NCBI GenBank assembly: GCA_964658305.1
Contig: OZ210884.1
Location: forward strand, 3,844,001-3,908,000
DNA from: Leptogorgia sarmentosa
Taxonomy: Eukaryota
Direction: 5' to 3'
DNA: 64,000 bases
A model generated the notes under the pieces. It searched no databases. It saw nothing but the letters and a program-made list of their open reading frames with translations, and was not told where the DNA came from. Numbering within the stretch: position 1 is the first letter of the stretch; the number at the start of each line of letters is the position of its first letter. Both the position numbers and the translations under genes were made by a program. Positions 17,280-41,300 of this stretch are shown here, piece by piece.

Positions 17280-17349
17280 ATGGCTTGTCTTGTAGTACGT
17301 AATTGCCTGTTTATCTGTGTGTTTCTGACGATTTATGTGGAAACCAGAG
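17280..17349 (+). CDS. Putative first exon encoding a signal peptide ([24 protein letters not shown])
   Basis: ATG in AAAATGG context, basic residue then hydrophobic core, strong donor AG|GTAAGC in phase 1 matching the EGF exons. Confidence 0.65.
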
Positions 17350-20300
17350 GTAAGCTTTGCGTCGAATTTTGATAATTTCAATTCCTATATTGAAGCACAC
17401 TGTAAAAACATATTGGTTGAAATGACCAGAATGTCTGAGAGAACCAATAAAAATTGGTCATTTTTACCAATAAAATTAACCAATAACTAATTGGTCATTT
17501 GAATATCCATATAATAGCATCATATCAGTAACCAATAAGGAACTAACTGTCTTCATGTGTGTTTTTATCAAATTCTAAAAAAATATGCGACTAGCCTTCG
17601 GCTAACTTTTCATTGAACTAGCTATAATTAATTTCTTGATACTGGTTTTTTAAGGGTATAATAATTGCCTTTTATGTTTTTCAGGGAAGAACACTTAAGA
17701 TTGAATTTATAAAGTATGCATTATATAGATATATGGTTTATCCATCGCGTGTATCTGTAAAATGCAACAAAAATAGGAAAAAAGTAGTATAATTTCCTTA
17801 CAAATGAAAGTAACTGTCGAGAACTTTGCCCAATCTCAAACACACTGCCGTGAAACCTTGCCATAAGCGCATAAATGTATCACAAACTGGGCGGTAGTAA
17901 ATTGATCTTTTTCTCTAAACTGGCGCTTTTTTTATTCTATATGACATGTCTTATTAATATATCAATCATGAATTACTAGCCTAGAAGAAATTAAATGAAA
18001 AAGCCTATCATTGCAGATGGCATGAATGTTATGTTAGAAAATTTCAGCCAATTTGTTGTTAAGTAATGCGGAAGTGTTTGTAAAAAATCTCTAATATTAT
18101 GTAACCTAAAATTAAATGCAACCTAAAATTCATGGTCATGTTAAAGCCTGGCATACCTAGATCGACATGCAGGTCGTAATTTTATACCAGAAAATTATAG
18201 CCAACTGATTACTGAATTCGTGGTTCATAAATGCGGAAGTGTTTGTAAAAAATCTCTAATATTATGTAACCTGAAATTAAATGTAACCTAAAATTCATAG
18301 CAAAGCCTATCACTGGCATGGCAGACCTAGATCGACTGACATGGCAGACCTAGAACTACGCTCGTTATCGCTCGGAGCCACTCGCCCGTATGCGCCCTCA
18401 CCGTCCAACAAGAATAGGGACCTTAAGATCTACAACGCGACCAACTCGACGACGCGCTTTCCGAAGAAAGAAATTTTTATGCTGAACAAAAACCAAGCAT
18501 AAATTGTGGTCCCCAAGGGCCATCCTCAACGGCGTTGTTGTTATCAACGCAACGTTAAACTAAGCATAATCACGTCTTCAAAACAACGTGAAGGCGGATT
18601 ACAACGTGAGAGCTGTTACTTCAAGCTGACTACAGCAACGATCGCATTGCTTTAGCTGAACCTACAGTGTGTAACTGTTTCTTGAACAAAATTCCAACAT
18701 CTATTAAAGCATAAAAAGGTCAGCACTCATTTTCAAGCCGAAAGTTAGACCCCGTCGTCGAGTTGGTCGTGTTGTAGACCTTAAGGTCCCTATATTTACT
18801 GCAACGGAGCCCAGCTAATCCCGATGAACCACTGTTTATGCTCCAAAATAAGGAACTCCTTACGAGAACTCTACCTAACGCTAATCTCAGAGAACTGTTA
18901 AAAATGTTAGGTTATAACGAGACAGGGAACGCCCCGCATAGTTTTAGAATAGGTGCAGCTTTACGTTATCAGCGTCCAATAATTATTTTTTTGGATCGAA
19001 CTTGCATCCAAAAAAAGTATTATTGGACTCTCTCGTGCGCAAACCCTAGCGCTGTCAAAAGCTTGAAGCTAAAAGCGCGCGAAAAAACAAACAATGGCCT
19101 GCAGCAGATTTGTGGTATGTTTTACTACGTGAAAATGGTATATATAACCACGGATGCAACCATCTAACTGCTGCAGTGTAAAACTTAATTCCAGAGCATT
19201 GTTTCTATGTTATTTAGTATATTTCTTTCACATTTTGCATTTGGTCGTATTTTTAAACCGATAAACGTCGTATTTATAATACTAAACGATTTTAGATTTA
19301 CGTCGTATTTATAATATAACCATGTCGAATATAAAATGTATATGGCGTTAGGCTTTAGGCAGTGTAAATTGGTAGCGATATAACTGTACTTGAAGGTACA
19401 AAACATCGATTTCAGTTTATGTTGTACCTGCAAGTACACTTTTGCTATCACCACCAAACTCACATTTGACGAGTAATACACCATGGTTATATATACGCAG
19501 TTGTTATTTGCCGGTCACGGACACGTACGAGCTTTGGCAATTTACCGTGAATACGCGGGCTATTTGCGGGCAATTCTAAATTCCGACTCTAAACAAAAAA
19601 TAAAGTCTTTTCTCTCTTTTTTTCCCTAATCCAAACCCAAACTCTAATCAGACCCTAACAGCAAAAATGCTGGGAAGAGAGCAAAATAGGCAAAGCTAAA
19701 AAAAAGGTAGAACATCGCGCTCTGGATTCGAACCCGGGAATTGTTTCACGGCGATCCAAACCTAAACCACTAGACCAACGAAGCTCGACACAAACTCTCC
19801 GTAAAAAATTCCTTATAAACAGAAAAATTCACGGACAAATAGGCAAAGCTCGTACATGTCCGTGACCGGACAAATAACAACTATGTTATATATTTGCTGC
19901 CGAGCGAAGCGAGGCAGCACACTATTCTTGACACGCGGTTGTTTCCCCAGAGTCTACTCGACCCAGTCTTTCGCGCGAGTTATGTATTGTCGAGATCGAG
20001 ATCTTGTGTCTTTCTGTCTGTCTGTCTGTCTGTCTGTCCATAAAGATGTTTGTCGTATCCGGGGGCATAATTAAGCTTCAGGGACGTTTGTTAAAAGAGG
20101 GGAGCGGTCAGAATAATTAAGCTTCAGCCTTCAAGTACATAAACAAGATATTGTATTGCGCACGCGGCACGCATCTCCATGTGCTTCAAGAATCGAAAGG
20201 TTTTTACAAAAGCGTTTCATACGGATGCAAGATTGTGCTAATGTTTTATGCGTTGTGGTTTGGTATTTGGTATTTATGGCGATCACACATATGATGCAAG

Positions 20301-23300
20301 CAATGTTCAGAATGCTAGCCCTAATAGACTGTTAGGGTTAGTGTTTACTATACTATTACTAATAGTATAGTAAACACTAGCTAACCCTAACAGTAAACCT
20401 TCACCCTAACTGGCGCGCTGTTGCTTTTTAAAGAACGGGACATAAACACAATATGCGCACTGAATCGCATTTTTAATTATTATGTTGAGCTTGCGATTAA
20501 AAAACGAGATATAAACGTGGTAAACTTAATCGGTAATAATTTTCACTTCGTACTATGATCGTATCACACTATCACGAAGGCTGTCAAACGCGTGCTTTCT
20601 GAATATTCGGGTATATCACATTTCACTTCGTGTAATCGTATTACGAAAAAATGTATCTTACCCAGGCTTCTTAAAAACTCGATTACATTACATTACGTGA
20701 TCATTTTGACTTCGTATCATCGTATCATGATAACAAGTCACTGTTTCAAAAGTGGACAGGTATTCTATAACCAAGCCGGGATTTTAAAGTTTGAGCGCAA
20801 CGGCAGCAATTTTCCTTGCGATAGTAACTCCTAGTATACAGGATTTCTGTATATTTTGTATCTGCAATTACATTTTTAGTATCACTACCACAAACTGCAC
20901 ATTTGACGAGTATTTCACCATGGTTATATATACAGGATTTCTGTTATTTGGTATCTGCAAGTACACTTTATAGTATCACTACCAATCTGCACATTTGACG
21001 AGTATTTCACCATGGTAATATATACAGGATTTCTGTATATTTTGTATCTGCAAATTATACACTTATAGTATCACTACCAAACTGCACATTTGACGAGTAT
21101 TTCACCATAGTTATATATACAGGATTTCTGTATATTTTGTATCTGCAATTATACACTTTAGTATCACTACCACACTGCACATTTGACGAGTATTTCAACA
21201 TGGTTATATATACAGGATTTCTGTATATTTTATATCGAGTGCAAGTACACTTTATAGTATCACTACCAAACTGCACATTTGACGAGTATTTCAACATGGT
21301 TATATGTACCGGTCTACAGGATTTCTGTATATTTTATATCTGCAAGTACACTTCAGTAGTATCACTACCAAAATGCACATTTGACGAGTATTTCACCATG
21401 GTTATTATATACAGGATTTCTGTATATTTTGTATCTGCATATTATACACTTTAGTATCACTACCAAACTGCACATTTGACGAGTATTTCAACATGGTTAT
21501 ATATACAGGATTTCTGTATATTTTGTATCTGCATATTATACACTTTAGTATCACTACCAAACTGCACATTTGACGAGTATTTCAACATGGTTATATATAC
21601 AGGATTTCTGCATATTATACACTTTAGTATCACTACCAAACTGCACATTTGACGAGTAGTTCACCATGGTTATATATACAGGATTTCTGTATATTTTGTA
21701 TCTGCAAATTATACACTTATAGTATCACTACCAAACTGCACATTTGACGAGTATTTCACCATAGTTAAATATACAGGATTTCTGTATATTTTATATCTGC
21801 AAGTACACTTTATAGTATCACTACCAAACTGCACATTTGACGAGTATTTCACCATGGTTATATATACAGGATTTCTGTATATTTTGTATCTGCATATTAT
21901 ACACTTTATTATCACTACCAAACTGCACATTTGACGAGTATTTCAACATGGTTATATGTACCGGTCTACAGGATTTCTGTATATTTTATATCTGCAAGCA
22001 CTTCAGTAGTATCACTACCAAAATGCACATTTGACGAGTATTTCACCATGGTTATTATATACAGGATTTCTGTATATTTTGTATCTGCATATTATACACT
22101 TTAGTATCACTACCAAACTGCACATTTGACGAGTATTTCAACATGGTTATATATACAGGATTTCTGTATATTTTGTAACTGCATATTATACACTTTAGTA
22201 TCACTACCAAACTGCACATTTGACGAGTATTTCAACATGGTTATATATACAGGATTTCTGTATATTTTGTATCTGCATATTATACACTTTAGTATCACTA
22301 CCAAACTGCACATTTGACGAGTATTTCAACATGGTTATATATACAGGATTTCTGTATATTTTGTATCTGCATATTATACACTTTAGTATCACTACCAAAC
22401 TGCACATTTGACGAGTATTTCAACATGGTTATATATACAGGATTTCTGTATATTTTGTATCTGCATATTATACACTTTAGTATCACTACGAAACTGCACA
22501 TTTGACGAGTATTTCAACATGGTTATATATACAGGATTTCTGTATATTTTGTATCTGCATATTATACACTTTAGTATCACTACCAAACTGCACATTTGAC
22601 GAGTATTTCAACATGGTTATATATACAGGATTTCTGTATATTTTGTATCTGCATATTATACACTTTAGTATCACTACCAAACTGCACATTTGACGAGTAT
22701 TTCACCATGGTTATTATATACAGGATTTCTGTATATTTTGTATCTGCATATTATACACTTTAGTATCACTACCAGACTGCACATTTGACGAGTATTTCAA
22801 CATGGTTATATATACAGGATTTCTGTATATTTTGTATCTGCATATTATACACTTTAGCATCACTACCAAACTACACATTTGACGAGTATTTCACCATGGT
22901 TATGTATACAGGATTTCTGTATATTTTGTATCTGCAAGTACACTTTAGTATCACTACCAAACTGCACATTTGACGAGTATTTGAACATGGTTATATATAC
23001 AGGATTTCTGTATATTTTGTATCTGCATATTATACACTTTAGTATCACTACCAAACTGCACATTTGACGAGTATTTCACCATGGTTATATATACAGGATT
23101 TCTGTATATTTTGTATCTGCAATTATACACTTTAGTTAGTATCACTACCAAACTGCACATTTGACGAGTATTTCACCATGGTTATATATACAGGATTTCT
23201 GTATATTTTGTATCTGCATATTATACACCTTAGTATCACTACCAAACTGCACATTTGACGAGTATTTCAACATGGTTATATACTGATACAGGATTTCTGT

Positions 23301-26300
23301 ATACTTTGTATCGGCAAGTACACTTCAGTAGTATCACTACCAAAATGCACATTTGACGAGTATTTCACCATGGTTATATATACAGGATTTCTGTATATTT
23401 TGTATCTGCATATTATACACTTTAGTATCACTACCAAACTACACATTTGACGAGTATTTCACCATGGTTATATATACAGGATTTCTGTATATTTTGTATC
23501 TGCAATTATACACTTTAGTTAGTATCACTACCAAAATGCACATTTGACGAGTATTTCAACATGGTTATATGTACAGGTCTACAGGATTTCTGTCATTCAG
23601 GAGTATAACTACCAAAATGCACATTTGACGAGTATTTCACCATGGTTATATATACAGGATTTCGGAATATTTTATATCTGCATATTATACACTTTAGTAT
23701 CACTACCAAACTACACATTTGACGAGTATTTCACCATGGTTATATATACAGGATTTCTGTATATTTTGTATCTGCAAGTACACTTTAGTATCACTACCAA
23801 ACTGCACATTTGACGAGTATTTCACCATGGTTATATATACAGGATTTCTGTATATTTTGTATCTGCATATTATACACCTTAGTATCACTACCAAACTGTA
23901 CATTTGATGAGTATTTCACCATGGTTATATATACAGGATTTCGGAATATTTTGTATCTGCATATTATACACTTTAGTATCACTACCAAACTACACATTTG
24001 ACGAGTATTTCACCATGGTTATATATACAGGATTTCTGTATATTTTGTATCTGCAAGTACACTTTAGTATCACTACCAAACTGCACATTTGACGAGTATT
24101 TCACCATGGTTATATATACAGGATTTCTGTATATTTTGTATCTGCATATTATACACCTTAGTATCACTACCAAACTGTACATTTGACGAGTATTTCACCA
24201 TGGTTATATATACAGGATTTCGGAATATTTTGTATCTGCATATTATACACTTTAGTATCACTACCAAACTACACATTTGACGAGTATTTCACCATGGTTA
24301 TATATACAGGATTTCTGTATATTTTGTATCTGCAAGTACACTTTAGTATCACTACCAAACTGCACATTTGACGAGTATTTCACCATGGTTATATATACAG
24401 GATTTCTGTATATTTTGTATCTGCAATTATACACTTTAGTATCACTACCAAAATGCACTGTTGACGAGTATTTCATCATGGTTATTATATAATTGGATTT
24501 CCGATGTTTTGTATCTGCTAGCGCAGTTTAGATATCGCTTTGGGGTGGTGATATCTAAACTGTACTTGCAGATACAAAGTATACAGAAATCCTGTATATA
24601 TATAAAACCATGATGAAATATTCGTCACATTATTTACTATACGATCTGTACCATATATATGTCTTGGGGTAGTGATATCTAAACTGTACTTGCAGATACA
24701 AAGTATACAGAAATCCTGTATATATAACCATGATGAAATACTCGTCACATTTAAAATTTAATATACTACCTACCATAGGTTTTGGGGTGGTGATATCTAA
24801 ACTGTACTTGCAGATACAAAGTATACAGAAATCCTGTATATATAACCATGATGAAATACTCGTCACATTTAAAATTTAATGTCCGACCTATACCATAGGT
24901 TTTGGGGTGGTGATATCTAAACTGTACTTGCAGATACAAAGTATACAGAAATCCTGTATATATAACCATGATGAAATACTCTTCACATTTAAAATTTAAT
25001 TATATACGATCTATACTATATGTCTTGGGGTGGGGGGGGGGGGGGGGTGATATCTAAACTGTACTTGCAGATACAAAGTATACAGAAATCCTGTATATAT
25101 AAACATGATGAAATACTCGTCACATTTAAAATTTAATATCCGACCTATACCATAGGTTTTGGGGAGGTGATATCTAAACTGTACTTGCAGATACAAAGTA
25201 TACAGAAATCCTGTATATATAACCATGATGAAATACTCGTCACATTTAAAATTTAATATACGACCTATACCATAGGTTTTGGGGTGGTGATATCTAAACT
25301 GTACTTGCAGATACAAAGTATACAGAAATCCTGTATATATAACCATGATGAAATACTCGTCACATTATTTACTATACGATCTGTACTATATATAGGTCTT
25401 GGGGTAGTGATATCTAAACTGTACTTGCAGATACAAAGTATACAGAAATCCTGTATATATAACCATGATGAAATATTCGTCACATTATTTACTATACGAT
25501 CTGTACTATATGTCTTGGGGTAGTGATATCTAAACTGTACTTGCAGATACAAAGTATACAGAAATCCTGTATATATAACCATGATGAAATACTCGTCACA
25601 TTTAAAATTTAATATACTACCTACCATAGGTTTTGGGGTGGTGATATCTAAACTGTACTTGCAGATACAAAGTATACAGAAATCCTGTATATATAACCAT
25701 GATGAAATACTCGTCACATTTAAAATTTAATATCCGACCTATACCATAGGTTTTGGGGTGGTGATATCTAAACTGTACTTGCAGATACAAAGTATACAGA
25801 AATCCTGTATATATAACCATGATGAAATACTCGTCACATTTAAAATTTAATATACGATCTATACTATATGTCTTGGGGTAGTGATATCTAAACTGTACTT
25901 GCAGATACAAAGTATACAGAAATCCTGTATATATAACCATGATGAAATACTCGTCACATTTAAAATTTAATATACGATCTATACTATATGTCTTGGGGTA
26001 GTGATATCTAAACTGTACTTGCAGATACAAAGTATACAGAAATCCTGTATATATATAACGATGATGAAATACTCGTCACATTTAAAATTTAATATACGAT
26101 CTATACTATATGTCTTGGGGTAGTGATATCTAAACTGTACTTGCAGATACAAAGTATACAGAAATCCTGTATATATAACCATGATGAAATACTCGTCACA
26201 TTTAAAATTTAATATACGATCTATACTATATGTCTTGGGGTAGTGATATCTAAACTGTACTTGCAGATACAAAGTATACAGAAATCCTGTATATATATAA

Positions 26301-29300
26301 CGATGATGAAATACTCGTCACATTTAAAATTTAATATACGATCTATACTATATGTCCACCCGTTGAACAAAGACCTCAACGGGTAGTACCCGATATTTCT
26401 CAATTGAGAACATGGGTAATGCCCACGCTGGATTATCGTCTAAGTAGCCTGGCCTGGTAAATTATGAACAGTGATTGCCCGGGTCTATAATCATATGCAT
26501 TTAGCCAGGCCAGAGTGGTGAGCAGCGAGCTCGATGTAGCTCAAGTGGTAAGGCACGCGGTGCGTGCGTTACAGTTCTATAGTTCAAGCCCCGGTTCGAC
26601 ACATTTTTTCAGCGTTAGTGATTAAACATTTTTTTCCTCAATATTTTTTCAACCACAATGGTCAGGGTTAGGATTCTAGGGTTTGGGTTGGGATTAAGGA
26701 AATTCTTAGTATATAGAAAAATGGTTTATATCTAACACTAATATAACTATATCAAGAGTAATACTGAAACGCCGACCAGCAAGCTTAGACGATAGTCCAG
26801 CGTGGGCATTACCCGTGTTCTCAATTGAGAAATATTGGGTACTACCCGTTGAGGTCTTTGTTCAACGGCTGATATGTCTTGGGGTAGTGATATCTAAACT
26901 GTACTTGCAGATACAAAGTATACAGAAATCCTGTATATATAACCATGATGAAATACTCGTCACATTTAAAATTTAATATACGACCTATACCATAGGTTTT
27001 GGGGGGTGATATCTAAACTGTACTTGCAGATACAAAGTATATACAGAAATCCTGTATATATAACCATGATGAAATACTCGTCACATTTAAAATTTAATAT
27101 ACGATCTATACTATATGTCTTGGGGTAGTGATATCTAAACTGTACTTGCAGATACAAAGTATACAGAAATCCTGTATATATAACCATGATGAAATACTCG
27201 TCACATTTAAAATTTAATATACGATCTATACTATATGTCTTGGGGTAGTGATATCTAAACTGTACTTGCAGATACAAAGTATACAGAAATCCTGTATATA
27301 TAACCATGATGAAATACTCGTCACATTTAAAATTTAATATACGATCTATACCATAGGTTTTGGGGGGTGATATCTAAACTGTACTTGCAGATACAAAGTA
27401 TACAGAAATCCTGTATATATAACCATGATGAAATACTCGTCACATTTAAAATTTAATATACGACCTATACCATAGGTTTTGGGGGGTGATATCTAAACTG
27501 TACTTGCAGATACAAAGTATACAGAAATCCTGTATATATAACCATGATGAAATAATCGTCACATTTAAAATTTAATATACGACCTATACCATAGGTTTTG
27601 GGGGGTGATATCTAAACTGTACTTGCAGATACAAAGTATACAGAAATCCTGTATATATAACCATGATGAAATACTCGTCACATTTAAAATTTAATATACG
27701 ACCTATACCATAGGTTTTGGGGGGTGATATCTAAACTGTACTTGCAGATACAAAGTATACAGAAATCCTGTATATATAACCATGATGAAATACTCGTCAC
27801 ATTTAAAATTTAATATACGATCTATACTATATGTCTTGGGGTAGTGATATCTAAACTGTACTTGCAGATACAAAGTATACAGAAATCCTGTATATATAAC
27901 CATGATGAAGTACTCGTCAAATATAAAATTTAATATACGAGTCTACTAGCTAGGTCTTGGGGGTAGTGATACCTATATACTGTAGTTGCAGATCAGCAGA
28001 TACAAAGTATACAGTAATCCTGTATATATAACCATGGTGAAACTGAAATAACCACTCCTTTTTAAGCGAATATTGTAGGTCACAGATGGCGTGGATTCGT
28101 AGTGAATCCTACTATATTTTCGGGAAATGAAAAGCCGATACACCGATTTTTGGTATCATAACCATTGTACGATCAGTTTTTGTCAAGCTGTTTAACAACG
28201 TTTATTCTTTGAAATCTCGAGTTTGTTGGTTGTAGCGCTAATCTAATAACTGCACACAATGTTGTTAACGTAATTGTAATATTTAGAATATCTACGTGCT
28301 TTATCGTCATTTTCTAACCCTATTTTGTGTGATTTTTGCCCAGATGATGGTCAGCATTTTCTATCAATTCAGTTATTTTTATAGATCAACGAGTAAATTT
28401 TTACATTTGGTCAGCGGAAATACCCACAAATTGCGTGGTTGCATCTGTGGTTATGTATACTGAAAAATGGATATGATACATATATCCAGATTTTCTTCGC
28501 TGAATGAAAGTGAACTCTCTTTTAAATGTATAATAAAACAATTATTGGATTCGGCTTTCGCATGATATCAAGAATTATTCAGACCTCGGTCAATGTTATC
28601 CGCCTCAGCTTCGCTTCGGCAGATAACATTGACCTCGGTCTGAATAATTCTTGATAATTATCATTCTCCGCCTCATCCAATAATTGTTTATTAAAGTAAT
28701 GAAAACCAAATATGTTACTGTTTTAACTTTTGTATCTTCCCGACATGATCAGTGAGGGCCTTCACATCATACGTTAATTAAAAACGTTTCTGGGTTCAAT
28801 ATAGACTAGCTTTCCTCGCTTTCAACGGTATTATTAATAATGTTCAACTCAAACACCGATACTTTTTTAAGACACTCGGTGGTCTAACTTTTCGTCTACG
28901 TAGAATAGGGTTGAATATATTCGACGTAGTCTTTCTTCCTTCATTTAAGGTCTAGCTCAGGGAAGGGAAGAAATGACAATTGTATTGTTTAGTCATATTT
29001 ACAACAAATGCAAAGTCTAAAATGATTCAATTTAGATCCAAACACGCACACCTAAATTATTGTTTAGAACCGCCCTTTGACGAGGAGTGTCTATATAATC
29101 ATAGTACGGACATTTGTGGCAGAAATTCTCAATGTAAGTATTGATACTGCTTGGGGTTCCAGACGCAAATGTAACCCTGGTTATTCAGGAGTGGTTTGTA
29201 CTGGTAAGGCTTGTTCTCTTATTATGTACGCGCCAATCATCTACCTTTTCCTGGTATATTCAATTAACATGTTCTTTATATTATAACCTATGCAAAATTA

Positions 29301-32300
29301 CATTACATCAGCACTACCAACGTTAACGCAGATTGATAGCTAATATCATTGCATTTCAGTCTGGTTCTCTTAATATATATGTATGTTTTGGAGAACATTA
29401 TAATCAAGGTGCATGTTCCAAGATTATATCATCGTTCTCCATAAGAATAGATTTTGTGAGTATAGTGAAATTAAAATTATTATAAAGTCTGTTACATGTA
29501 TTCTTAGATGAAGCCCGTAGCAGAGGGGGGGGGGGGGGTGCCCCACCCACTCGGAAATAAAATTGAAATTGTGCCCCCCTATTCCACAATCTTTTTGCCA
29601 TTTAAAAATTAGACAGCGAGGCTGTCTTGTCCATGAAAGAATAGTAATCGAAGGCGTAGCCTAATTATTTTGGTGTAGTAGCCACAAACACTATCACTGT
29701 GATAGTCAGTGTGACGTTTGAATATCTGAATATTAACAGAAATATAAATACATTTATATGCAGCTTTTGCTTTTTTGGTTTTAGTTAAGCCCACTTATGA
29801 CAGTAACGCCGACGAACTTGGTATGATAATACTTTGATAACACTGTAATATACCCTTTATTTTCATTTTGAAATTTTAATGTGTGTGAAACATGACATAC
29901 GACAAAGACCGTGGATCACTAACTAAACTAGCTGCGAGTTCAAAAGTTCAAAAGCGTACCAAATCTTTTTAAATTTTTTTTCTGCAGCGCCCCCCCCAGA
30001 AAAAAAGAGCCATGATCAATGTTCTTCGACTAACAACTGCCATTCCAATGCTGATTGCATCAACACTTATGGGTTTAACGTGTGCACTTGTCGCACTGGA
30101 TACAAAGGAAATGGAATTCTTTGCACTGGTAAACAAACCCCATTTATTAATAAAACCTGCCTTAAAAAGACAATTCAGAGTTGTTTTTTTAAATAAATGA
30201 GTGATAACCTAAAATATTGTTTTTTAAAGCTCTGCCAAATATTTTCAGATATCGATGAATGTTCTTTTTCTCGTGACAAAAACTGTCACAAAAATGCCAT
30301 TTGCAGCAATACTGATGGATCTTTCTTGTGCACCTGTGGCACTGGATTCACTGGAAATGGAATTCTTTGCACTGGTAAACAAACCCATTTACTAATAAAA
30401 CCTCTCTTAAAATAAAGACAATTCAGAGTTTTTATGAAATAAATGAGTGATTAAACCTAAAATATATATTTTTTAAATTTTTGTCAAATATTTTCAGATA
30501 TCGATGAATGTTCTTTTTCTCATGACAACTGTCACGAAAATGCCATTTGCAGCAATACTGATGGATCTTTCTTGTGCACTTGTGACACTGGCTATACAGG
30601 AAATGGAATTCGTTGCAGAGGTAGAGTCAAACTAATTTGGTTACATTAAAAATTTCCAAAAATCCTTTTCTATAATTAAGAGCGAAGATTCTGAAAAGAG
30701 GTAGTAATAATCTAAATGTCTATACGTGGAAGTTTTGAAAACGAAGGAAATGCTTCGAATGAATTAAGCTATCCATAAATGGTAAATAAATGTATAATTG
30801 TTGTATCCGTTTAGATATAGATGAATGTTCTCTTTCTCTTGACAACTGTCACGACAACGCCATTTGCAGTAATACTGATGGATCTTTCGCTTGCACTTGT
30901 GACACTGGATACACTGGAAATGGAATTCTTTGCACTGGTAATTACTAAACAAACCCATTTACCAATAAAACCTTCCCTTAAAAATAAAAATAATTCAGAG
31001 TTTTTATGATTATGAAATAAATTTGTTACAACCAAAAATATTTTTTTCGTGAAAGTTTTGTCAAATATTTTCAGATATCGATGAATGTTCTTTTTCTCGT
31101 GACAACTGTCACGAAAATGCCATTTGCAGCAATACTGATGGATCTTTCTTGTGCACTTGTGGCATTGGATACACTGGAAATGGAATTCTTTGCACTGGTA
31201 AACAAACCCATTTATTAATAAGACCTTCCTATAAAAAAAAATAATTCAGAGTTTTTATGAAATAAAAGAGTGATAACCTAAAAAATTGTTGCGAAAGTTT
31301 TGTCAAATATTTCAGATATCGATGAATGTTCTTTTTCTCGTGACAACTGTCACGAAAATGCCATTTGCAGCAATACTGATGGATCTTTCTTGTGCACTTG
31401 TGACACTGGCTATACAGGAAATGGAATTCGTTGCGGAGGTAGAGTTAAGCTAATTTGGTTACTTTAAAAATTTCCAAAAATCCTTTTCTATAATTAAGAG
31501 CGAAGATTCTGAAAAGAGGTAGTAATAACCTAAATGTCTACGTGGAAGTTTTCAAAACGAAGGAAAAGCTTCGAATGAATTAAGCTATCCATAAATGGCA
31601 AGTAGATGTATAATTGTTGTATCCGTTTAGATATAGATGAATGTTCTCTTTCTCTTGACAATTGTCACGACAACGCCATTTGCAGCAATACTGATGGATC
31701 TTTCGCTTGCACTTGTGACACTGGATACACTGGAAATGGAATTCTTTGCGGTGGTAATTACTAAACAAACCCATTTATTAATAAAACCTGCCTTAAAAAT
31801 AAAGATAATTCAGAGTTTTTATGATTTATGAAATAAATTGAGTTACAACCTATAATACAATATTTTTTTCGCGAAAGTTTTTTCAAATATTTTCAGATAT
31901 CCATGAATGTTCTTTTTCTCTTGACAACTGTCACGAAAATGCCATTTGCAGCAATACTGATGGATCTTTCTTGTGCACTTGTGGCATTGGATACACTGGA
32001 AATGGAATTCTTTGCACTGGTAAACAAACCCATTTACTAATAAAACCTGCATTAAAAATAAAGACAATTAGAGTTTTTATGAAATAAATTAGTTACAACC
32101 TAAAATATTTTTCTTGAAAGTTTTGTCAAATATTTTCAGATATCGATGAATGTTCTTTTTCTCGTGACAACTGTCACGAAAATGCCATTTGCAGCAATAC
32201 TGATGGATCTTTCTTGTGCACTTGTGACACTGGCTACACAGGAAATGGAATTCGTTGCAGAGGTAGAGTTAAACTAATTTGGTTACTTTAAAAATTTCCA

Positions 32301-35300
32301 AGAATCCTTTTCTATAATTAAGAGCGAAGATTCTGAAATGAGGTAGTAATAACCTAAATGTCTCCGTGGAAGTTTTGAAAACGAAAGAAATACTTCGAGT
32401 GAATTATGCTATCCATAAATGGCAAGTAGATGTATAATTGTTGTATCCGTTTAGATATAGATGAATGTTCTCTTTCTCTTGACAATTGTCACGACAACGC
32501 CATATGCAGCAATACTGGTGGATCTTTCGCTTGCACTTGTGACACTGGATACACTGGAAATGGAATTCTTTGCATTGGTAATTACTAAAGAAACCCATTT
32601 TCCAATAAAACCTGCCTTAGGAATAAAGATAGTTCAGAGTTTTTATGATTATGAAATAAATGAGTTACAACCTAAAATATTGTTTTCGTGAAAGTTTTGT
32701 CAAATATTTTCAGATATCGATGAATGTTCTTTTTCTCATCTCAACTGTCACGAAAATGCCATTTGCAGCAATACTGAAGGATCTTTCTTGTGCACTTGTG
32801 ACATTGGATACACCGGAAATGGAATTCGTTGCAGAGGTAGAGTCAAACTAATTTGGTTACATTAAAAATTTCCAAAAATCCTTTTCTATAATTAAGAGCG
32901 AAGATTCTGAAAAGAGGTAGTAATAATCTAAATGTCTATACGTGGAAGTTTTGAAAACGAAGGAAATGCTTCGAATGAATTAAGCTATCCATAAATGGTA
33001 AATAAATGTATAATTGTTGTATCCGTTTAGATATAGATGAATGTTCTCTTTCTCTTGACAACTGTCACGACAACGCCATTTGCAGTAATACTGATGGATC
33101 TTTCGCTTGCACTTGTGACACTGGATACACTGGAAATGGAATTCTTTGCACTGGTAATTACAAAAACAAACCCATTTACCAATAAAACCTTCCCTTAAAA
33201 ATAAAAATAATTCAGAGTTTTTATGATTATGAAATAAATTTGTTACAACCAAAAATATTTTTTTCGTGAAAGTTTTGTCAAATATTTTCAGATATCGATG
33301 AATGTTCTTTTTCTCGTGACAACTGTCACGAAAATGCCATTTGCAGCAATACTGATGGATCTTTCTTGTGCACTTGTGGCATTGGATACACTGGAAATGG
33401 AATTCTTTGCACTGGTAAACAAACCCATTTATTAATAAGACCTTCCTATAAAAAAAATAATTCAGAGTTTTTATGAAATAAAAGAGTGATAACCTAAAAA
33501 ATTGTTGCGAAAGTTTTGTCAAATATTTCAGATATCGATGAATGTTCTTTTTCTCGTGACAACTGTCACGAAAATGCCATTTGCAGCAATACTGATGGAT
33601 CTTTCTTGTGCACTTGTGACACTGGCTATACAGGAAATGGAATTCGTTGCGGAGGTAGAGTTAAGCTAATTTGGTTACTTTAAAAATTTCCAAAAATCCT
33701 TTTCTATAATTAAGAGCGAAGATTCTGAAAAGAGGTAGTAATAACCTAAATGTCTACGTGGAAGTTTTCAAAACGAAGGAAAAGCTTCGAATGAATTAAG
33801 CTATCCATAAATGGCAAGTAGATGTATAATTGTTGTATCCGTTTAGATATAGATGAATGTTCTCTTTCTCTTGACAATTGTCACGACAACGCCATTTGCA
33901 GCAATACTGATGGATCTTTCGCTTGCACTTGTGACACTGGATACACTGGAAATGGAATTCTTTGCGGTGGTAATTACTAAACAAACCCATTTATTAATAA
34001 AACCTGCCTTAAAAATAAAGATAATTCAGAGTTTTTATGATTTATGAAATAAATTGAGTTACAACCTATAATACAATATTTTTTTCGCGAAAGTTTTTTC
34101 AAATATTTTCAGATATCCATGAATGTTCTTTTTCTCTTGACAACTGTCACGAAAATGCCATTTGCAGCAATACTGATGGATCTTTCTTGTGCACTTGTGG
34201 CATTGGATACACTGGAAATGGAATTCTTTGCACTGGTAAACAAACCCATTTACTAATAAAACCTGCATTAAAAATAAAGACAATTAGAGTTTTTATGAAA
34301 TAAATTAGTTACAACCTAAAATATTTTTCTTGAAAGTTTTGTCAAATATTTTCAGATATCGATGAATGTTCTTTTTCTCGTGACAACTGTCACGAAAATG
34401 CCATTTGCAGCAATACTGATGGATCTTTCTTGTGCACTTGTGACACTGGCTACACAGGAAATGGAATTCGTTGCAGAGGTAGAGTTAAACTAATTTGGTT
34501 ACTTTAAAAATTTCCAAGAATCCTTTTCTATAATTAAGAGCGAAGATTCTGAAATGAGGTAGTAATAACCTAAATGTCTCCGTGGAAGTTTTGAAAACGA
34601 AAGAAATACTTCGAGTGAATTATGCTATCCATAAATGGCAAGTAGATGTATAATTGTTGTATCCGTTTAGATATAGATGAATGTTCTCTTTCTCTTGACA
34701 ATTGTCACGACAACGCCATATGCAGCAATACTGGTGGATCTTTCGCTTGCACTTGTGACACTGGATACACTGGAAATGGAATTCTTTGCATTGGTAATTA
34801 CTAAAGAAACCCATTTTCCAATAAAACCTGCCTTAGGAATAAAGATAGTTCAGAGTTTTTATGATTATGAAATAAATGAGTTACAACCTAAAATATTGTT
34901 TTCGTGAAAGTTTTGTCAAATATTTTCAGATATCGATGAATGTTCTTTTTCTCATCTCAACTGTCACGAAAATGCCATTTGCAGCAATACTGAAGGATCT
35001 TTCTTGTGCACTTGTGACATTGGATACACCGGAAATGGAATTCGTTGCAGAGGTAGAGTCAAACTAATTTGGTTACATTAAAAATTTCCAAAAATCCTTT
35101 TCTATAATTAAGAGCGAAGATTCTGAAAAGAGGTAGTAATAATCTAAATGTCTATACGTGGAAGTTTTGAAAACGAAGGAAATGCTTCGAATGAATTAAG
35201 CTATCCATAAATGGTAAATAAATGTATAATTGTTGTATCCGTTTAGATATAGATGAATGTTCTCTTTCTCTTGACAACTGTCACGACAACGCCATTTGCA

Positions 35301-38300
35301 GTAATACTGATGGATCTTTCGCTTGCACTTGTGACACTGGATACACTGGAAATGGAATTCTTTGCACTGGTAATTACAAAAACAAACCCATTTACCAATA
35401 AAACCTTCCCTTAAAAATAAAAATAATTCAGAGTTTTTATGATTATGAAATAAATTTGTTACAACCAAAAATATTTTTTTCGTGAAAGTTTTGTCAAATA
35501 TTTTCAGATATCGATGAATGTTCTTTTTCTCGTGACAACTGTCACGAAAATGCCATTTGCAGCAATACTGATGGATCTTTCTTGTGCACTTGTGGCATTG
35601 GATACACTGGAAATGGAATTCTTTGCACTGGTAAACAAACCCATTTATTAATAAGACCTTCCTATAAAAAAAATAATTCAGAGTTTTTATGAAATAAAAG
35701 AGTGATAACCTAAAAAATTGTTGCGAAAGTTTTGTCAAATATTTCAGATATCGATGAATGTTCTTTTTCTCGTGACAACTGTCACGAAAATGCCATTTGC
35801 AGCAATACTGATGGATCTTTCTTGTGCACTTGTGACACTGGCTATACAGGAAATGGAATTCGTTGCGGAGGTAGAGTTAAGCTAATTTGGTTACTTTAAA
35901 AATTTCCAAAAATCCTTTTCTATAATTAAGAGCGAAGATTCTGAAAAGAGGTAGTAATAACCTAAATGTCTACGTGGAAGTTTTCAAAACGAAGGAAAAG
36001 CTTCGAATGAATTAAGCTATCCATAAATGGCAAGTAGATGTATAATTGTTGTATCCGTTTAGATATAGATGAATGTTCTCTTTCTCTTGACAATTGTCAC
36101 GACAACGCCATTTGCAGCAATACTGATGGATCTTTCGCTTGCACTTGTGACACTGGATACACTGGAAATGGAATTCTTTGCGGTGGTAATTACTAAACAA
36201 ACCCATTTATTAATAAAACCTGCCTTAAAAATAAAGATAATTCAGAGTTTTTATGATTTATGAAATAAATTGAGTTACAACCTATAATACAATATTTTTT
36301 TCGCGAAAGTTTTTTCAAATATTTTCAGATATCCATGAATGTTCTTTTTCTCTTGACAACTGTCACGAAAATGCCATTTGCAGCAATACTGATGGATCTT
36401 TCTTGTGCACTTGTGGCATTGGATACACTGGAAATGGAATTCTTTGCACTGGTAAACAAACCCATTTACTAATAAAACCTGCATTAAAAATAAAGACAAT
36501 TAGAGTTTTTATGAAATAAATTAGTTACAACCTAAAATATTTTTCTTGAAAGTTTTGTCAAATATTTTCAGATATCGATGAATGTTCTTTTTCTCGTGAC
36601 AACTGTCACGAAAATGCCATTTGCAGCAATACTGATGGATCTTTCTTGTGCACTTGTGACACTGGCTACACAGGAAATGGAATTCGTTGCAGAGGTAGAG
36701 TTAAACTAATTTGGTTACTTTAAAAATTTCCAAGAATCCTTTTCTATAATTAAGAGCGAAGATTCTGAAATGAGGTAGTAATAACCTAAATGTCTCCGTG
36801 GAAGTTTTGAAAACGAAAGAAATACTTCGAGTGAATTATGCTATCCATAAATGGCAAGTAGATGTATAATTGTTGTATCCGTTTAGATATAGATGAATGT
36901 TCTCTTTCTCTTGACAATTGTCACGACAACGCCATATGCAGCAATACTGGTGGATCTTTCGCTTGCACTTGTGACACTGGATACACTGGAAATGGAATTC
37001 TTTGCATTGGTAATTACTAAAGAAACCCATTTTCCAATAAAACCTGCCTTAGGAATAAAGATAGTTCAGAGTTTTTATGATTATGAAATAAATGAGTTAC
37101 AACCTAAAATATTGTTTTCGTGAAAGTTTTGTCAAATATTTTCAGATATCGATGAATGTTCTTTTTCTCATCTCAACTGTCACGAAAATGCCATTTGCAG
37201 CAATACTGAAGGATCTTTCTTGTGCACTTGTGACATTGGATACACCGGAAATGGAATTCTTTGCACTGGTAAACAAACCCATTTATTAATAAAACCTGCC
37301 TTAAAAATAAAGACAATTCAGAGTTTTTATGAAATAAATGAGAGATAATCTAAATTATTTTTTTCCGGTGCGTAACTCCCCGTCCATAACCTAAATAGAG
37401 CTTTCTGATTGGTTGCCGAGCGGTCCGTATCCTACGGTACGGACTGCACGCATTCTCGTAGATACAAACATAGTCAATGTTTTTGTTTTTTAAAATTGAA
37501 TAACCGCTTTTTAAAACATTCAAAACGAATTTAGGAGATAAAGAACACATGAAAGTTCATTTTATCATGCTAAGGGATATTTTAGGGGGTATTTACAGCG
37601 ACAAAAACGCATAAGTATCAAAAAGTCTCATCAGTATGAACAAAACAAGACATTCTCGGCGAAATATTTCGGTGCCTAAAGCGTATTTTCACCATGTTTG
37701 TATCGTGAAACAAACGGGAACATAAATCATCTTAATACGTTTACCCTTTTCGTAGTAATGTTGAGTGGAAAAGCGTCAATATTGAGGCAAATGCGTCAAT
37801 ATTGAAGGGTTTTTTCTCACTTCGTCTTGGCTGTTTAGCAGCCATACTTGCGATAGAGTAGCAAAGTAAACAAACACAACTGATCTCAAAAACTAGTTCG
37901 CAACGCTGGAATTTTTGACGAATTTTATCATAAAATAGAGGAGAAAAAAAAAAGAAAGTTATTTACCATTTAGGTCGGTCCGTACTGGAAAATATTTTGT
38001 CTCGGTCTCAAAAACGTCCCTCAGCCTTCGGCCTCGGGCCGTTTTCGAGACCCTGACAAAATATTTTCCAGTACAGGTCCGGACCTCCCAGCTGGTAAAT
38101 AACATATGTATATATTTTTTTTTGAAAGTTTTTTAAAATATTTTCAGATATCGATGAATGTTCTTTTTCTCATCTCAACTGCCACGAAAAGGCCATTTGC
38201 AGCAATACTGCTGGATCTTTCTTGTGCACCTGTGACACTGGATTCACTGGAAATGGAATTCTTTGCACTGGTAAACAAACCCATTTACTAATAAAACCTC

Positions 38301-41300
38301 CCTTAAAATAAAGACAATTCAGAGTTTTTATGAAATAAATGAGTGATTAAACATAAAAAATATTTTTTTGAAAGTTTTGTCAAATATTTTCAGATATCGA
38401 TGAATGTTCTTTTTCTCATGACAACTGTCACGAAAATGCCATTTGCAGCAATACTGATGGATCTTTCTTGTGCACTTGTGACACTGGCTACACAGGAAAT
38501 GGAATTCTTTGCAGAGGTAGAGTTAAGCTAATTTGGTTACTTCAAAATTTCCAAGAATCCTTTTGTTGAATTAAGAGCGAAGATTCTGAAAAGAGGTAGT
38601 AATAACCTAAATGTCTACGTGGAAGTTTTCAAAACGAAGGAAATGCTTCGAATGAATTAAGCTATCCATAAATGGTAAGTAAATGTATAATTGTTGTATC
38701 CGTTTAGATATCGATGAATGTTCTCTTTCTCTTGACAATTGTCACGACAACGCCATTTGCAGTAACACTGATGGATTTTTCGCTTGTACTTGTAACACCG
38801 GATACACTGGAAATGGAATTCTTTGCAGTGGTAATTACTAAACAAACATATTTACTAATCAAACCTGTCTTAGGAATACAGATAATTCAGAGTTTTTATG
38901 ATTTATGAAATAAATGAGTTACAACCTAAAGTATTTTTTGTGAAAATTTTGTCAAATATTTTTAGATATCGATGAATGTTCTTTTTCTCGTGACAACTGT
39001 CACGAAAATGCCATTTGCAGCAATACTGATGGATCTTTCTTGTGCACTTGTGACACTGGCTACACAGGAAATGGAATTCGTTGCAGGGGTACAGTTAAGC
39101 TAATTTGGTTACTTTAAAAATTTCCAAGAATCCTTTTCTATAATTAAGAGGGAAAATTCTGAAAAGAGGTAGTAATAACCTAAATGTCTACGTGGAAGTT
39201 TTCAAATCGAAGGAAATGCTTCGAATGAATTAAGCTATCCATAAATGGTAAGTAAATGTATTGTTGTATCCGTTTAGATATCGATGAATGTTCTCTTTCT
39301 CTTGACAACTGTCACAACAACGCCATTTGCAGTAACACTGATGGATCTTTCGCTTGCACTTGTGACACTGGATACACTGGAAATGGAATTCTTTGCACTG
39401 GTAAACAAACCCATTTACTAATAAAACCTTCCTTAAGAAGAAAGATAATTTATAATTTTTATGAAATAAATGAGGTAGAACCTAAAATATTGCTTTTGTG
39501 AAAGTTTTTTCAAATATTTTCAGATATCGATGAATGTTCTTTTTCTCATGACAACTGTAACGAAAATGCCATTTGCAGCAATACTGATGGATCTTTCTTG
39601 TGCACTTGTGACATTGGATACACTGGAAATGGAATTCTTTGCACTGGTAAACAAACCCATTTACTTATAAAACCTGCATTAAGAAGAAAGATAATTTATA
39701 GTTTTTATGAAATAAATGAGGTACAACATAAAATATTGTTTTTGTGAAAGTTTTTTCAAATATTTTCAGATATCGATGAATGTTCTTTTTCTCATGACAA
39801 CTGTCACGAAAATGCCATTTGCAGCAATACTGATGGATCTTTCTTGTGCACTTGTGACACTGGATACACTGGAAATGGAATTCTTTGCACTGGTAAACAA
39901 TCCCATTTACTAATAAAACCTGCCTTAATAATAAAGACAATCAGAGTTTTTATGAAATAAATGAGTGATAACCTAAAATATTTTTGCGAAAGTTTTGTCA
40001 AATATTTTCAGATATCGATGAATGTTCTCTTTTCCTTCACAACTGTCATCACAACGCCATTTGCAACAACACTAACGGATCATTCGTTTGTACTTGTGAC
40101 ACTGGATACACGGGAAATGGAATTCTTTGCATTGGTAAACAAATCCATTAATTAATAAAACCTGCCTTGAAATAAAGATAATTCAGTTTTTTGATAGAAT
40201 AAAGAAGTTATAACCTAAAATATTTTATTTGTGAATGTTTTGTCATATATTTTCAGATATCGATGAATGTTCTTTTTCTTGTGACAACTGTCACGAAAAT
40301 GCCATTTGCAGCAATACTGATGGATCTTTCTTGTGCACTTGTGACATTGGATACACCGGAAATGGAACTGTTTGCAAAGGTGAAATTTAAATAGGTGCTG
40401 AACGGTAATTTGATTCCCCAACATCTTAAATATCTTTCTCGTTTAATAGAAACAAACAACAAGTAAACTTTTCAGGAAATTCTTGAAAGATTTTATATAG
40501 AACTAATTAAACTAGTCACATGTTGTTTAAACATTCATTAAATGTGTTTAAACATTCATTAAATGGAGAATATCATAAACGCACATGTTTGTTATTTCTC
40601 AAGCTACCAATGTATATTTTTATGTGAAAAAGTAATTTGCAGAGGTAAACTGAATAAAATATGTATTTTTTATTCCTCAAATTTTCGACAAAATGTGTTG
40701 AAAACCTGAAACCTTTTTGGCGTTCCTTTCAAAATCTAATTATTCTGTGATTATTGTCTCAATACAATTGTCTATTTGTAATCTTCGAAACTTTGTATTG
40801 CTAATGAGAAACTAAAAGGAACATAAAAGATATGAGCTAGCAACACTACTTCAATGTTCGTATAACCAGCGCAACATGATTGAAGCCTTGGTTTCGACAA
40901 TAAATACAAGATTTTAAACATAATTTTCTCTTTGGCGTGCCGTCCAAATCTATTTTCTTCATTGCATATCATAAATTATGTATCCGCCAGGTTTTTGAGG
41001 TTAGTCTACTAACCGAGAAACTTCAACTTCGGAATACATATTTTGAAGAACCTGAGCTTTGAGCGCGAGATACGGAAATACAGAAAATCTTTGTCTTAGT
41101 AAAACCTGCCTCTGAAATAAAGATAAATTTGTATTTTAACCGAAAGATTAATATCCTCAACTTGAAAAAATTATATGTGGACGTTCTCTTTTATATGTTT
41201 AGATATCGATGAATGTTCTCTTTTCCTTCACAACTGTCACGAAAATGCCACTTGTACTAACACTAACGGATCATTCGTCTGCATTTGTGTCTCTGGGTAC

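Follow-up and report, generated by a model that had tools for sequence, protein, structure and literature searches.

How do two related satellite arrays come to face each other across a palindrome, and do they belong to one mobile unit? This question arises in a 64,000-nucleotide stretch of the Leptogorgia sarmentosa genome (assembly GCA_964658305.1, contig OZ210884.1, positions 3,844,001 to 3,908,000 of the forward strand; hereafter the window, numbered from its first letter). Taken as a whole, the locus is probably best explained as one non-autonomous foldback insertion of the cut-and-paste type, which the transposase of a Mutator-like element (MULE) would have mobilised and whose facing arrays would have originated by inversion within an array. 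The structure is a real, young, non-autonomous foldback-type DNA transposon, with ends corrected relative to those first proposed, and is of a kind already known; its variant features are two different satellites, unrelated arms and a likely inversion origin.

The full element occupies 19112–28486 (9,375 bp; first base G, last base C), which leaves 7,510 bp when three nested inserts are subtracted from its length. We aligned contigs of public runs to 18300–20830 (runs X15, X17, X1 and X18) and to 27925–28530 (X15, X1, X4 and X18). The runs come from three studies; X15 and X17 represent one sample, from which the window itself may derive, X4 is labelled as a second organism, and runs X5–X14, with small word shares, were left out. 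The matches with loose ends used here are 24 of 572 in the left region and 23 of 33 in the right region. The features that define the limits are as follows.

19105–19111, plus strand: left target-site duplication CAGATTT, an exact match to the right copy
28487–28493, plus strand: right target-site duplication CAGATTT, seen in empty host contigs; 8 bp if one left T was lost
18980–19111 (left limit approximate), no strand: left half of a high-copy host repeat, with depth far above that of the arms in X15, X17 and X1
28487–28520 (right limit approximate), no strand: right half of the host repeat, with a depth of 312,491 versus ~1,400 in the arm
19138–19162, plus strand: left sub-terminal inverted repeat, 23/25 match
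28436–28460, minus strand: right sub-terminal inverted repeat, 23/25 match, also present in the metagenome locus L016 (below)
28043–28435, no strand: right unique segment, at multi-copy depth in 4 of 4 runs

The initial annotation had advised a search for target-site duplications and empty sites, and both were found: CAGATTT is an exact 7-bp duplication on both sides of the element, and the host repeat lacking the element is seen from both sides in the public-run contigs. At least one X15 contig matches the window up to 19111 and then continues with the letters of 28494–28519 plus one additional G, and in at least seven X15 contigs 20 left-flank letters are fused directly to 28487. Since these contigs join the left flank to the right flank, each flank is one half of a single host repeat of very high copy number; the empty state observed is that of the host-repeat family, not an orthologous empty allele. 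On the right, a common contig stops at 28486 in X15, X1 and X18, and at least six contigs from three runs (5 of the 23 matches listed) continue into differing flanks at 28482–28488. On the left, the match of one X1 contig begins at 19112 after 623 other letters and that of one X18 contig at 19111, both among the matches listed. The same ends therefore occur with different flanks, on the right in those six or more contigs and on the left in the X1 contig. The outer inverted pair first reported is real (23 of 25 positions identical), but it does not mark the termini: both 25-mers sit exactly 26 bp inside the element ends, as placed by the contig breakpoints and by CAGATTT. The duplication could measure 8 bp if one T of the left homopolymer run was lost; a T at 28309 is absent from the window and present in contigs of all four runs.

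Two short sequences, TGAAAATG (19130–19137) and TGAAAAATG (28461–28469), directly adjoin the 25-bp inverted pair within the element. We considered them as a 9-bp duplication just outside the 25-mers and rejected this, as both lie inside the shared ends; an earlier duplication that was taken up into new ends may have left them behind. Palindromic repeats lie on both sides of the element (18971–19031 and 28531–28693), and the host repeat may belong to their family.

The duplication, the empty host repeat and further copies sharing the ends all support the single non-coding, foldback-type mobile unit that had been proposed. The left and right arms have depths of 35.7 versus 33.6–36.6 in X1, 1,692 versus ~950–1,410 in X15, and 12.6 versus 15.5 in X18, and contigs with their own flank have depths of 6.6 (X1) and 191 (X15). 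Arm depth set against own-flank depth suggests a family of roughly 5–10 loci, depth being no direct copy number. Compared with the window, left-arm contigs have 0–2 changed letters and right-arm contigs mostly 0–6 (one X15 variant has 8 plus gaps), and with so few differences the family looks young.

Two separate elements, either MITEs (miniature inverted-repeat transposable elements) or Helentron/HINE-type elements with amplified ends, could in principle lie head to head or form a recombined chimera, since each arm is bounded by an inverted motif pair (19138/19495 and 28022/28460) and the monomer core is found in further sequence surroundings too (loose ends, 28008–28036). We hold this to be very unlikely: one duplication brackets both arms, the flanks are halves of one host repeat, and the arm depths agree in three runs. 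Helitron-type elements, moreover, are not known to make a target-site duplication, whereas a 7-bp duplication is present here.

A scan of metagenomes with the 18-bp core as pattern returned 27 loci, of which 26 were dropped as chance because they were short matches only. The remaining locus, L016 (929 positions), holds a third satellite that shares the core (122 bp), adjoined by a right end with homology of 86% across 124 bp whose last base differs from that of the window element. Pattern scans with the sub-terminal repeat gave no match in metagenomes, 0 and 0 in viral contigs, and 0 and 1 in bacterial genomes; the single bacterial match is a bare 22-bp one that lacks further homology.

The interior of the element is dominated by two arrays. 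Tandem Repeats Finder places array A at 20835–24518 (period 94, 39.3 copies) and array B at 24539–26352 (15.0 copies) and 26872–28042 (9.7 copies; period 119–120), in agreement with the two related, facing arrays described initially. Identities to consensus below were computed from 38 full A units and 22 full B units.

20835–24462, minus strand (strand of the motif): array A, ~39 units of 94 bp, mean 94.9% identity to consensus
24539–28042, plus strand (strand of the motif): array B, ~25 units of 120 bp, mean 95.7% identity to consensus
19408–19495, minus strand (strand of GTATATATAACCA): first A-type monomer, separated from the array by insertions, 82–89% identity to the best-matching A units

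The A and B consensus units match at 73 of 82 aligned columns, so that the shared core is about 80 bp long and not ~65 bp as first estimated; its first 46 bp hardly vary between A, B and L016, and the sub-terminal repeat resembles it over ~20 bp. With at most one mismatch, GTATATATAACCA occurs 58 times, all within 19138–28460, versus 0.28 expected. These occurrences are distributed as one on the plus strand at 19138, 34 in the left half (minus strand), 22 in the right half (plus strand) and one on the minus strand at 28448; in the monomers the motif is thus oriented opposite to the nearer 25-mer. It recurs in most monomers, not in every one as had been stated (56 occurrences in ~65 units). A and reverse-complemented B share no 31-mer, the longest perfect stretch common to their units being 30 bp. 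The arms had been thought to have expanded and homogenised independently; separate homogenisation of A and B stands, but the arms are not mirror images. Likewise, the ~300–400 bp of unique DNA described outside both arrays stands on the right, whereas on the left there are 245 bp, one monomer and then 1.34 kb made up of two nested elements.

A computed RNA duplex between one A unit and one B unit reaches −120 kcal/mol versus −36.6 kcal/mol for the best of 100 shuffles, and the units could pair if the surrounding intron (below) is transcribed. The element thus has the opposed tandem-repeat arms of a foldback element, able to pair in the computed duplex, but these arms are not inverted copies along their length. 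A rival reading takes the inverted junction for an artefact of assembly or of read fold-back. The central junction does lie outside both aligned read regions, but the units at the junction are decayed, and the absence of a 31-mer common to A and reverse-complemented B means that neither array is a mirror read of the other. Because the flanks rejoin into one host repeat, a switch of orientation is forced inside the element, and we regard an artefact as highly improbable.

The arrays meet, as the initial annotation had it, at a palindrome, CAGTTTAGATATC-13 nt-GATATCTAAACTG, located at 24524–24562. The surrounding 24463–24612 folds as a hairpin with a z score of −9.9, which 0 of 200 shuffles equal, and the palindrome score of 84 is reached by 0 of 1000 shuffles. 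Relics of B-type units lie at either end of array A.

24524–24562, no strand: core of the central interrupted palindrome, 13-bp arms and 13-nt spacer
24463–24538, minus strand: decayed B-type unit in A orientation, the left half of the central palindrome (score 101 versus B, 82 versus A)
19316–19406, plus strand: decayed B-type monomer oriented as array B (score 35 versus the B consensus, 0 of 1000 shuffles)

The monomer at 19316–19406 and the next unit form a second palindrome (score 32, 0 of 1000 shuffles; fold z −2.9, 2 of 200 shuffles), centred near 19407, where the TATACAG-N5-CTGTATA repeat of the monomer itself has its loop. The blocks run direct, inverted, direct, and an interrupted palindrome marks both junctions. 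No mirror relic was detected in the right arm, where 882 of 1000 shuffles score equally well, and the left and right unique segments have no detectable homology (local score 30, reached by 73 of 300 shuffles).

The unit nearest the centre on the left is B-type, so that one and the same repeat must once have stood on either side of the centre. The lack of mirror symmetry between the arms, together with the two decayed palindromes that bound A, suggests an inversion within one array rather than two elongating arms, and we somewhat favor an origin of the facing arrays by inversion inside one one-directional array. Part of a single one-directional B-type array would have been inverted through fold-back template switching at short palindromes; the inverted block would then have been homogenised into the 94-bp A satellite while the remainder stayed B, and the family would have spread thereafter with at least one nested MITE aboard. 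Inverted triplications formed by template switching (ODIRA/TID models) have the same direct-inverted-direct order with interrupted palindromes at both junctions, although those are chromosomal copy-number variants of yeast and humans, whereas here an intra-transposon block would have arisen in this way (PMC4689423). The origin implied by the initial annotation, in which the middle of an autonomous, mirror-armed foldback element was lost and the arms diverged into A and B, is possible, though we adopt it less readily: it accommodates the B-type innermost left unit, and elongation of terminal inverted repeats (TIRs) with loss of the transposase is the usual account of foldback elements (PMC4079207, PMC3169594), but the unique parts of the arms lack homology, and the B-oriented relic outside array A on the left has no mirror on the right.

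What moved the element is approached through its ends. A MULE-like transposase encoded elsewhere probably mobilises it; such an enzyme would bind a motif, based on GTATATATAACCA, that the 25-bp sub-terminal repeats and most monomers contain, and would cleave 26 bp further out, at short palindromic termini. The recurrence of the sub-terminal repeat in the near-invariant monomer core fits a transposase-binding site. The element contains only four ATG-initiated open reading frames (ORFs) of at least 100 amino acids (107–120 amino acids), each of them on the minus strand and within the region of array B; no transposase was found in it, and 0 of 4 stop-to-stop frames of the nested inserts had a Pfam match.

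19112–19128, plus strand: left terminal 17-bp imperfect palindrome, 5/6 pairs, loop TGTTT
28470–28486, minus strand: right terminal 17-bp imperfect palindrome, 5/6 pairs, loop TGTAT, with a different stem sequence

Terminal palindromes at both ends in the same register (loop TGTWT) arose in 71 of 200,000 shuffles, in a test picked after the pattern had been seen. At the L016 end the 17-bp pattern is weak by eye, and the two terminal 87–89-bp stretches fold no better than shuffles (z −1.0 and −1.4). The ends are asymmetric outside the 25-bp sub-terminal inverted pair, which points to MULEs. Duplications in the Phantom group reportedly range from 7 to 12 bp. As a rule, elements of the P type begin with CA and match well in their outermost bases; here the ends read G...C, and just 9 of the 26 outer positions match, which is chance level (33% of shuffles). 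Sub-terminal inverted repeats with asymmetric ends are described for the Mutator-like element Tm1 (PMC3169594), and in Muta1 subterminal repeats raise binding and excision and the terminal motif is an imperfect palindrome (PMC5499845).

The same unit could instead be a P-superfamily, Galileo-like foldback derivative. A 7-bp duplication lies within the 7–8 bp of that superfamily and is typical of Galileo, of which a 9,021-bp copy consists of two TIRs with tandem repeats and nested elements (PMC4168063), and the tandem repeats in Galileo TIRs contain secondary binding sites (PMC3573991). Galileo TIRs are, however, inverted copies with conserved ends, unlike the mismatched outer 26 bp and unmirrored arms found here (PMC4168063, PMC3573991). 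We give a MULE affiliation about an even chance, consider the P superfamily doubtful and any other superfamily equally so, and file the element under neither MULE nor P. It is unlikely that the element represents an unclassified family in which 17-bp end hairpins, placed 26 bp beyond a short inverted repeat, are kept in shape and not in sequence, the foldback arises by array inversion, and the satellites diverge yet travel together; on this reading each copy in a transcribed intron would give kilobases of imperfect double-stranded RNA.

Several observations weigh against a MULE-mobilised unit with an inverted array. The left start is supported by two contigs among the matches listed (X1 at 19112, X18 at 19111). 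None of the aligned contigs or reads spans the whole element or the central junction, so that depth is what links a left arm to a right arm in other copies. The duplication length is known from one locus, and there its 7 bp fall below the 8–11 bp of MULEs (PMC6446971) and equal that of Galileo. Pattern scans of metagenomes, viral contigs and bacterial genomes found no autonomous partner. The final 60 bp at the right end are 3–7 times as deep as the arm in X18, hence the right end is also present on related elements. Finally, little is left of the decayed relic on the left (~32 aligned bases and a second patch of 21 bases, a score that 6 of 1000 shuffles attain for the latter), which makes the inversion origin weaker than the transposon call.

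Comparable elements are known from flies, beetles and nematodes (PMC4079207, bioRxiv 10.1101/2024.12.02.626372, PMC3169594); literature searches found no description of such an element in corals, although Repbase and Dfam, which lay outside the search, may catalogue it. Like Tetris of Drosophila virilis, the element is a non-autonomous foldback with satellite-size arrays whose repeats share a short stretch with the outer terminal domain, and in both cases an autonomous partner was not found; Tetris TIRs, however, are built of one repeat family (TIR-220) and make 8–10-bp duplications, whereas two satellites, 7 bp and unrelated unique arms are found here (PMC4079207). Tm1 of Meloidogyne (Phantom subclass of Mutator) likewise has asymmetric motifs outside its sub-terminal repeats and repetitive arms, but its outer motifs measure 7 bp, its repeats 14 bp and its duplications 9 bp, and its transposase is known, compared to a 26-bp outer part and 94- and 120-bp repeats here (PMC3169594). 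The Rehavkus-like elements of Tribolium carry satellite arrays of up to 50 units in inverted termini, sometimes longer than 11 kb, and are thought to have spread their satellites by transposition (bioRxiv 10.1101/2024.12.02.626372). Rehavkus, whose reported hosts are arthropods and annelids, duplicates 9 bp of its target and has a central part, whereas the arrays here meet directly at a palindrome (PMC6446971).

As foldback elements are already published as carriers of satellites, the surprise is limited. The locus nevertheless offers a well-bounded case of a young transposon family with ~6.5 kb of satellite DNA aboard, in which two satellites of one ancestor touch yet homogenise separately, so that copies of the family can serve to test how orientation affects concerted evolution. 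An inversion origin, if true, would provide a second route to the foldback structure beside TIR elongation.

Three passengers, 1.9 kb in total, are nested inside the element.

19496–19885, no strand: MITE 1, with ~57-bp terminal inverted repeats, a 9-bp duplication TTATATATA and RNA polymerase III (Pol III) box A/B inside
19891–20834, plus strand: high-copy nested element with a TGTC microsatellite, a CTAG end and an A|T target, and no duplication
26357–26871, no strand: MITE 2, with 88-bp terminal inverted repeats (95%), an exact 7-bp duplication ATATGTC, CA...TG ends and Pol III box A/B

The 9-bp duplication of MITE 1 is completed once the adjoining insert at 19891–20834 is removed. Contigs of X17, X1 and X18 cross 19496 into MITE 1 at arm depth, its left junction being common to the multi-copy family, so that its insertion predates the spread of the family. 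The adjoining insert is presumably of Helitron/HINE type, and another copy of it, among the matches listed, begins at 19890 with a different flank. MITE 2 splits array B. Both MITEs hold a candidate Pol III box A and box B 32 nt apart (19690–19800, minus strand; 26520–26620, plus strand), in what we take to be the Pol III patterns, followed by an oligo-T run and TTAGGG-like sequence. ARAGORN found no tRNA, and 9 Rfam matches, all on hairpins, score far below the gathering threshold.

The surrounding DNA of the window is AT-rich and eukaryotic, and candidate exons on either side make a position of the element in intron 1 of a receptor kinase gene plausible.

17280–17349, plus strand: signal-peptide-like candidate for exon 1 of the receptor kinase gene, phase 1, with a GT donor
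29068–29203, plus strand: candidate next exon, EGF-like, 136 bp, frameshifted

Exons further downstream encode EGF, Ig, fn3 and protein-kinase domains. In 29068–29203 the EGF-like halves lie in different frames and one cysteine is missing, indicating either a decayed exon or an assembly error. Upstream of the element, a 390-bp high-copy insert with 41-bp inverted ends (18402–18791), skipped by contigs of X17, X1 and X18, interrupts a frame that has no Pfam match and contains HSFRIGAA, which we take to be a tyrosine recombinase motif. Downstream, tandem EGF-coding exons recur with a period of 246 bp over ~30000–40400, and between ~31,800 and 37,100 an ORF pattern recurs every 2,216 bp.

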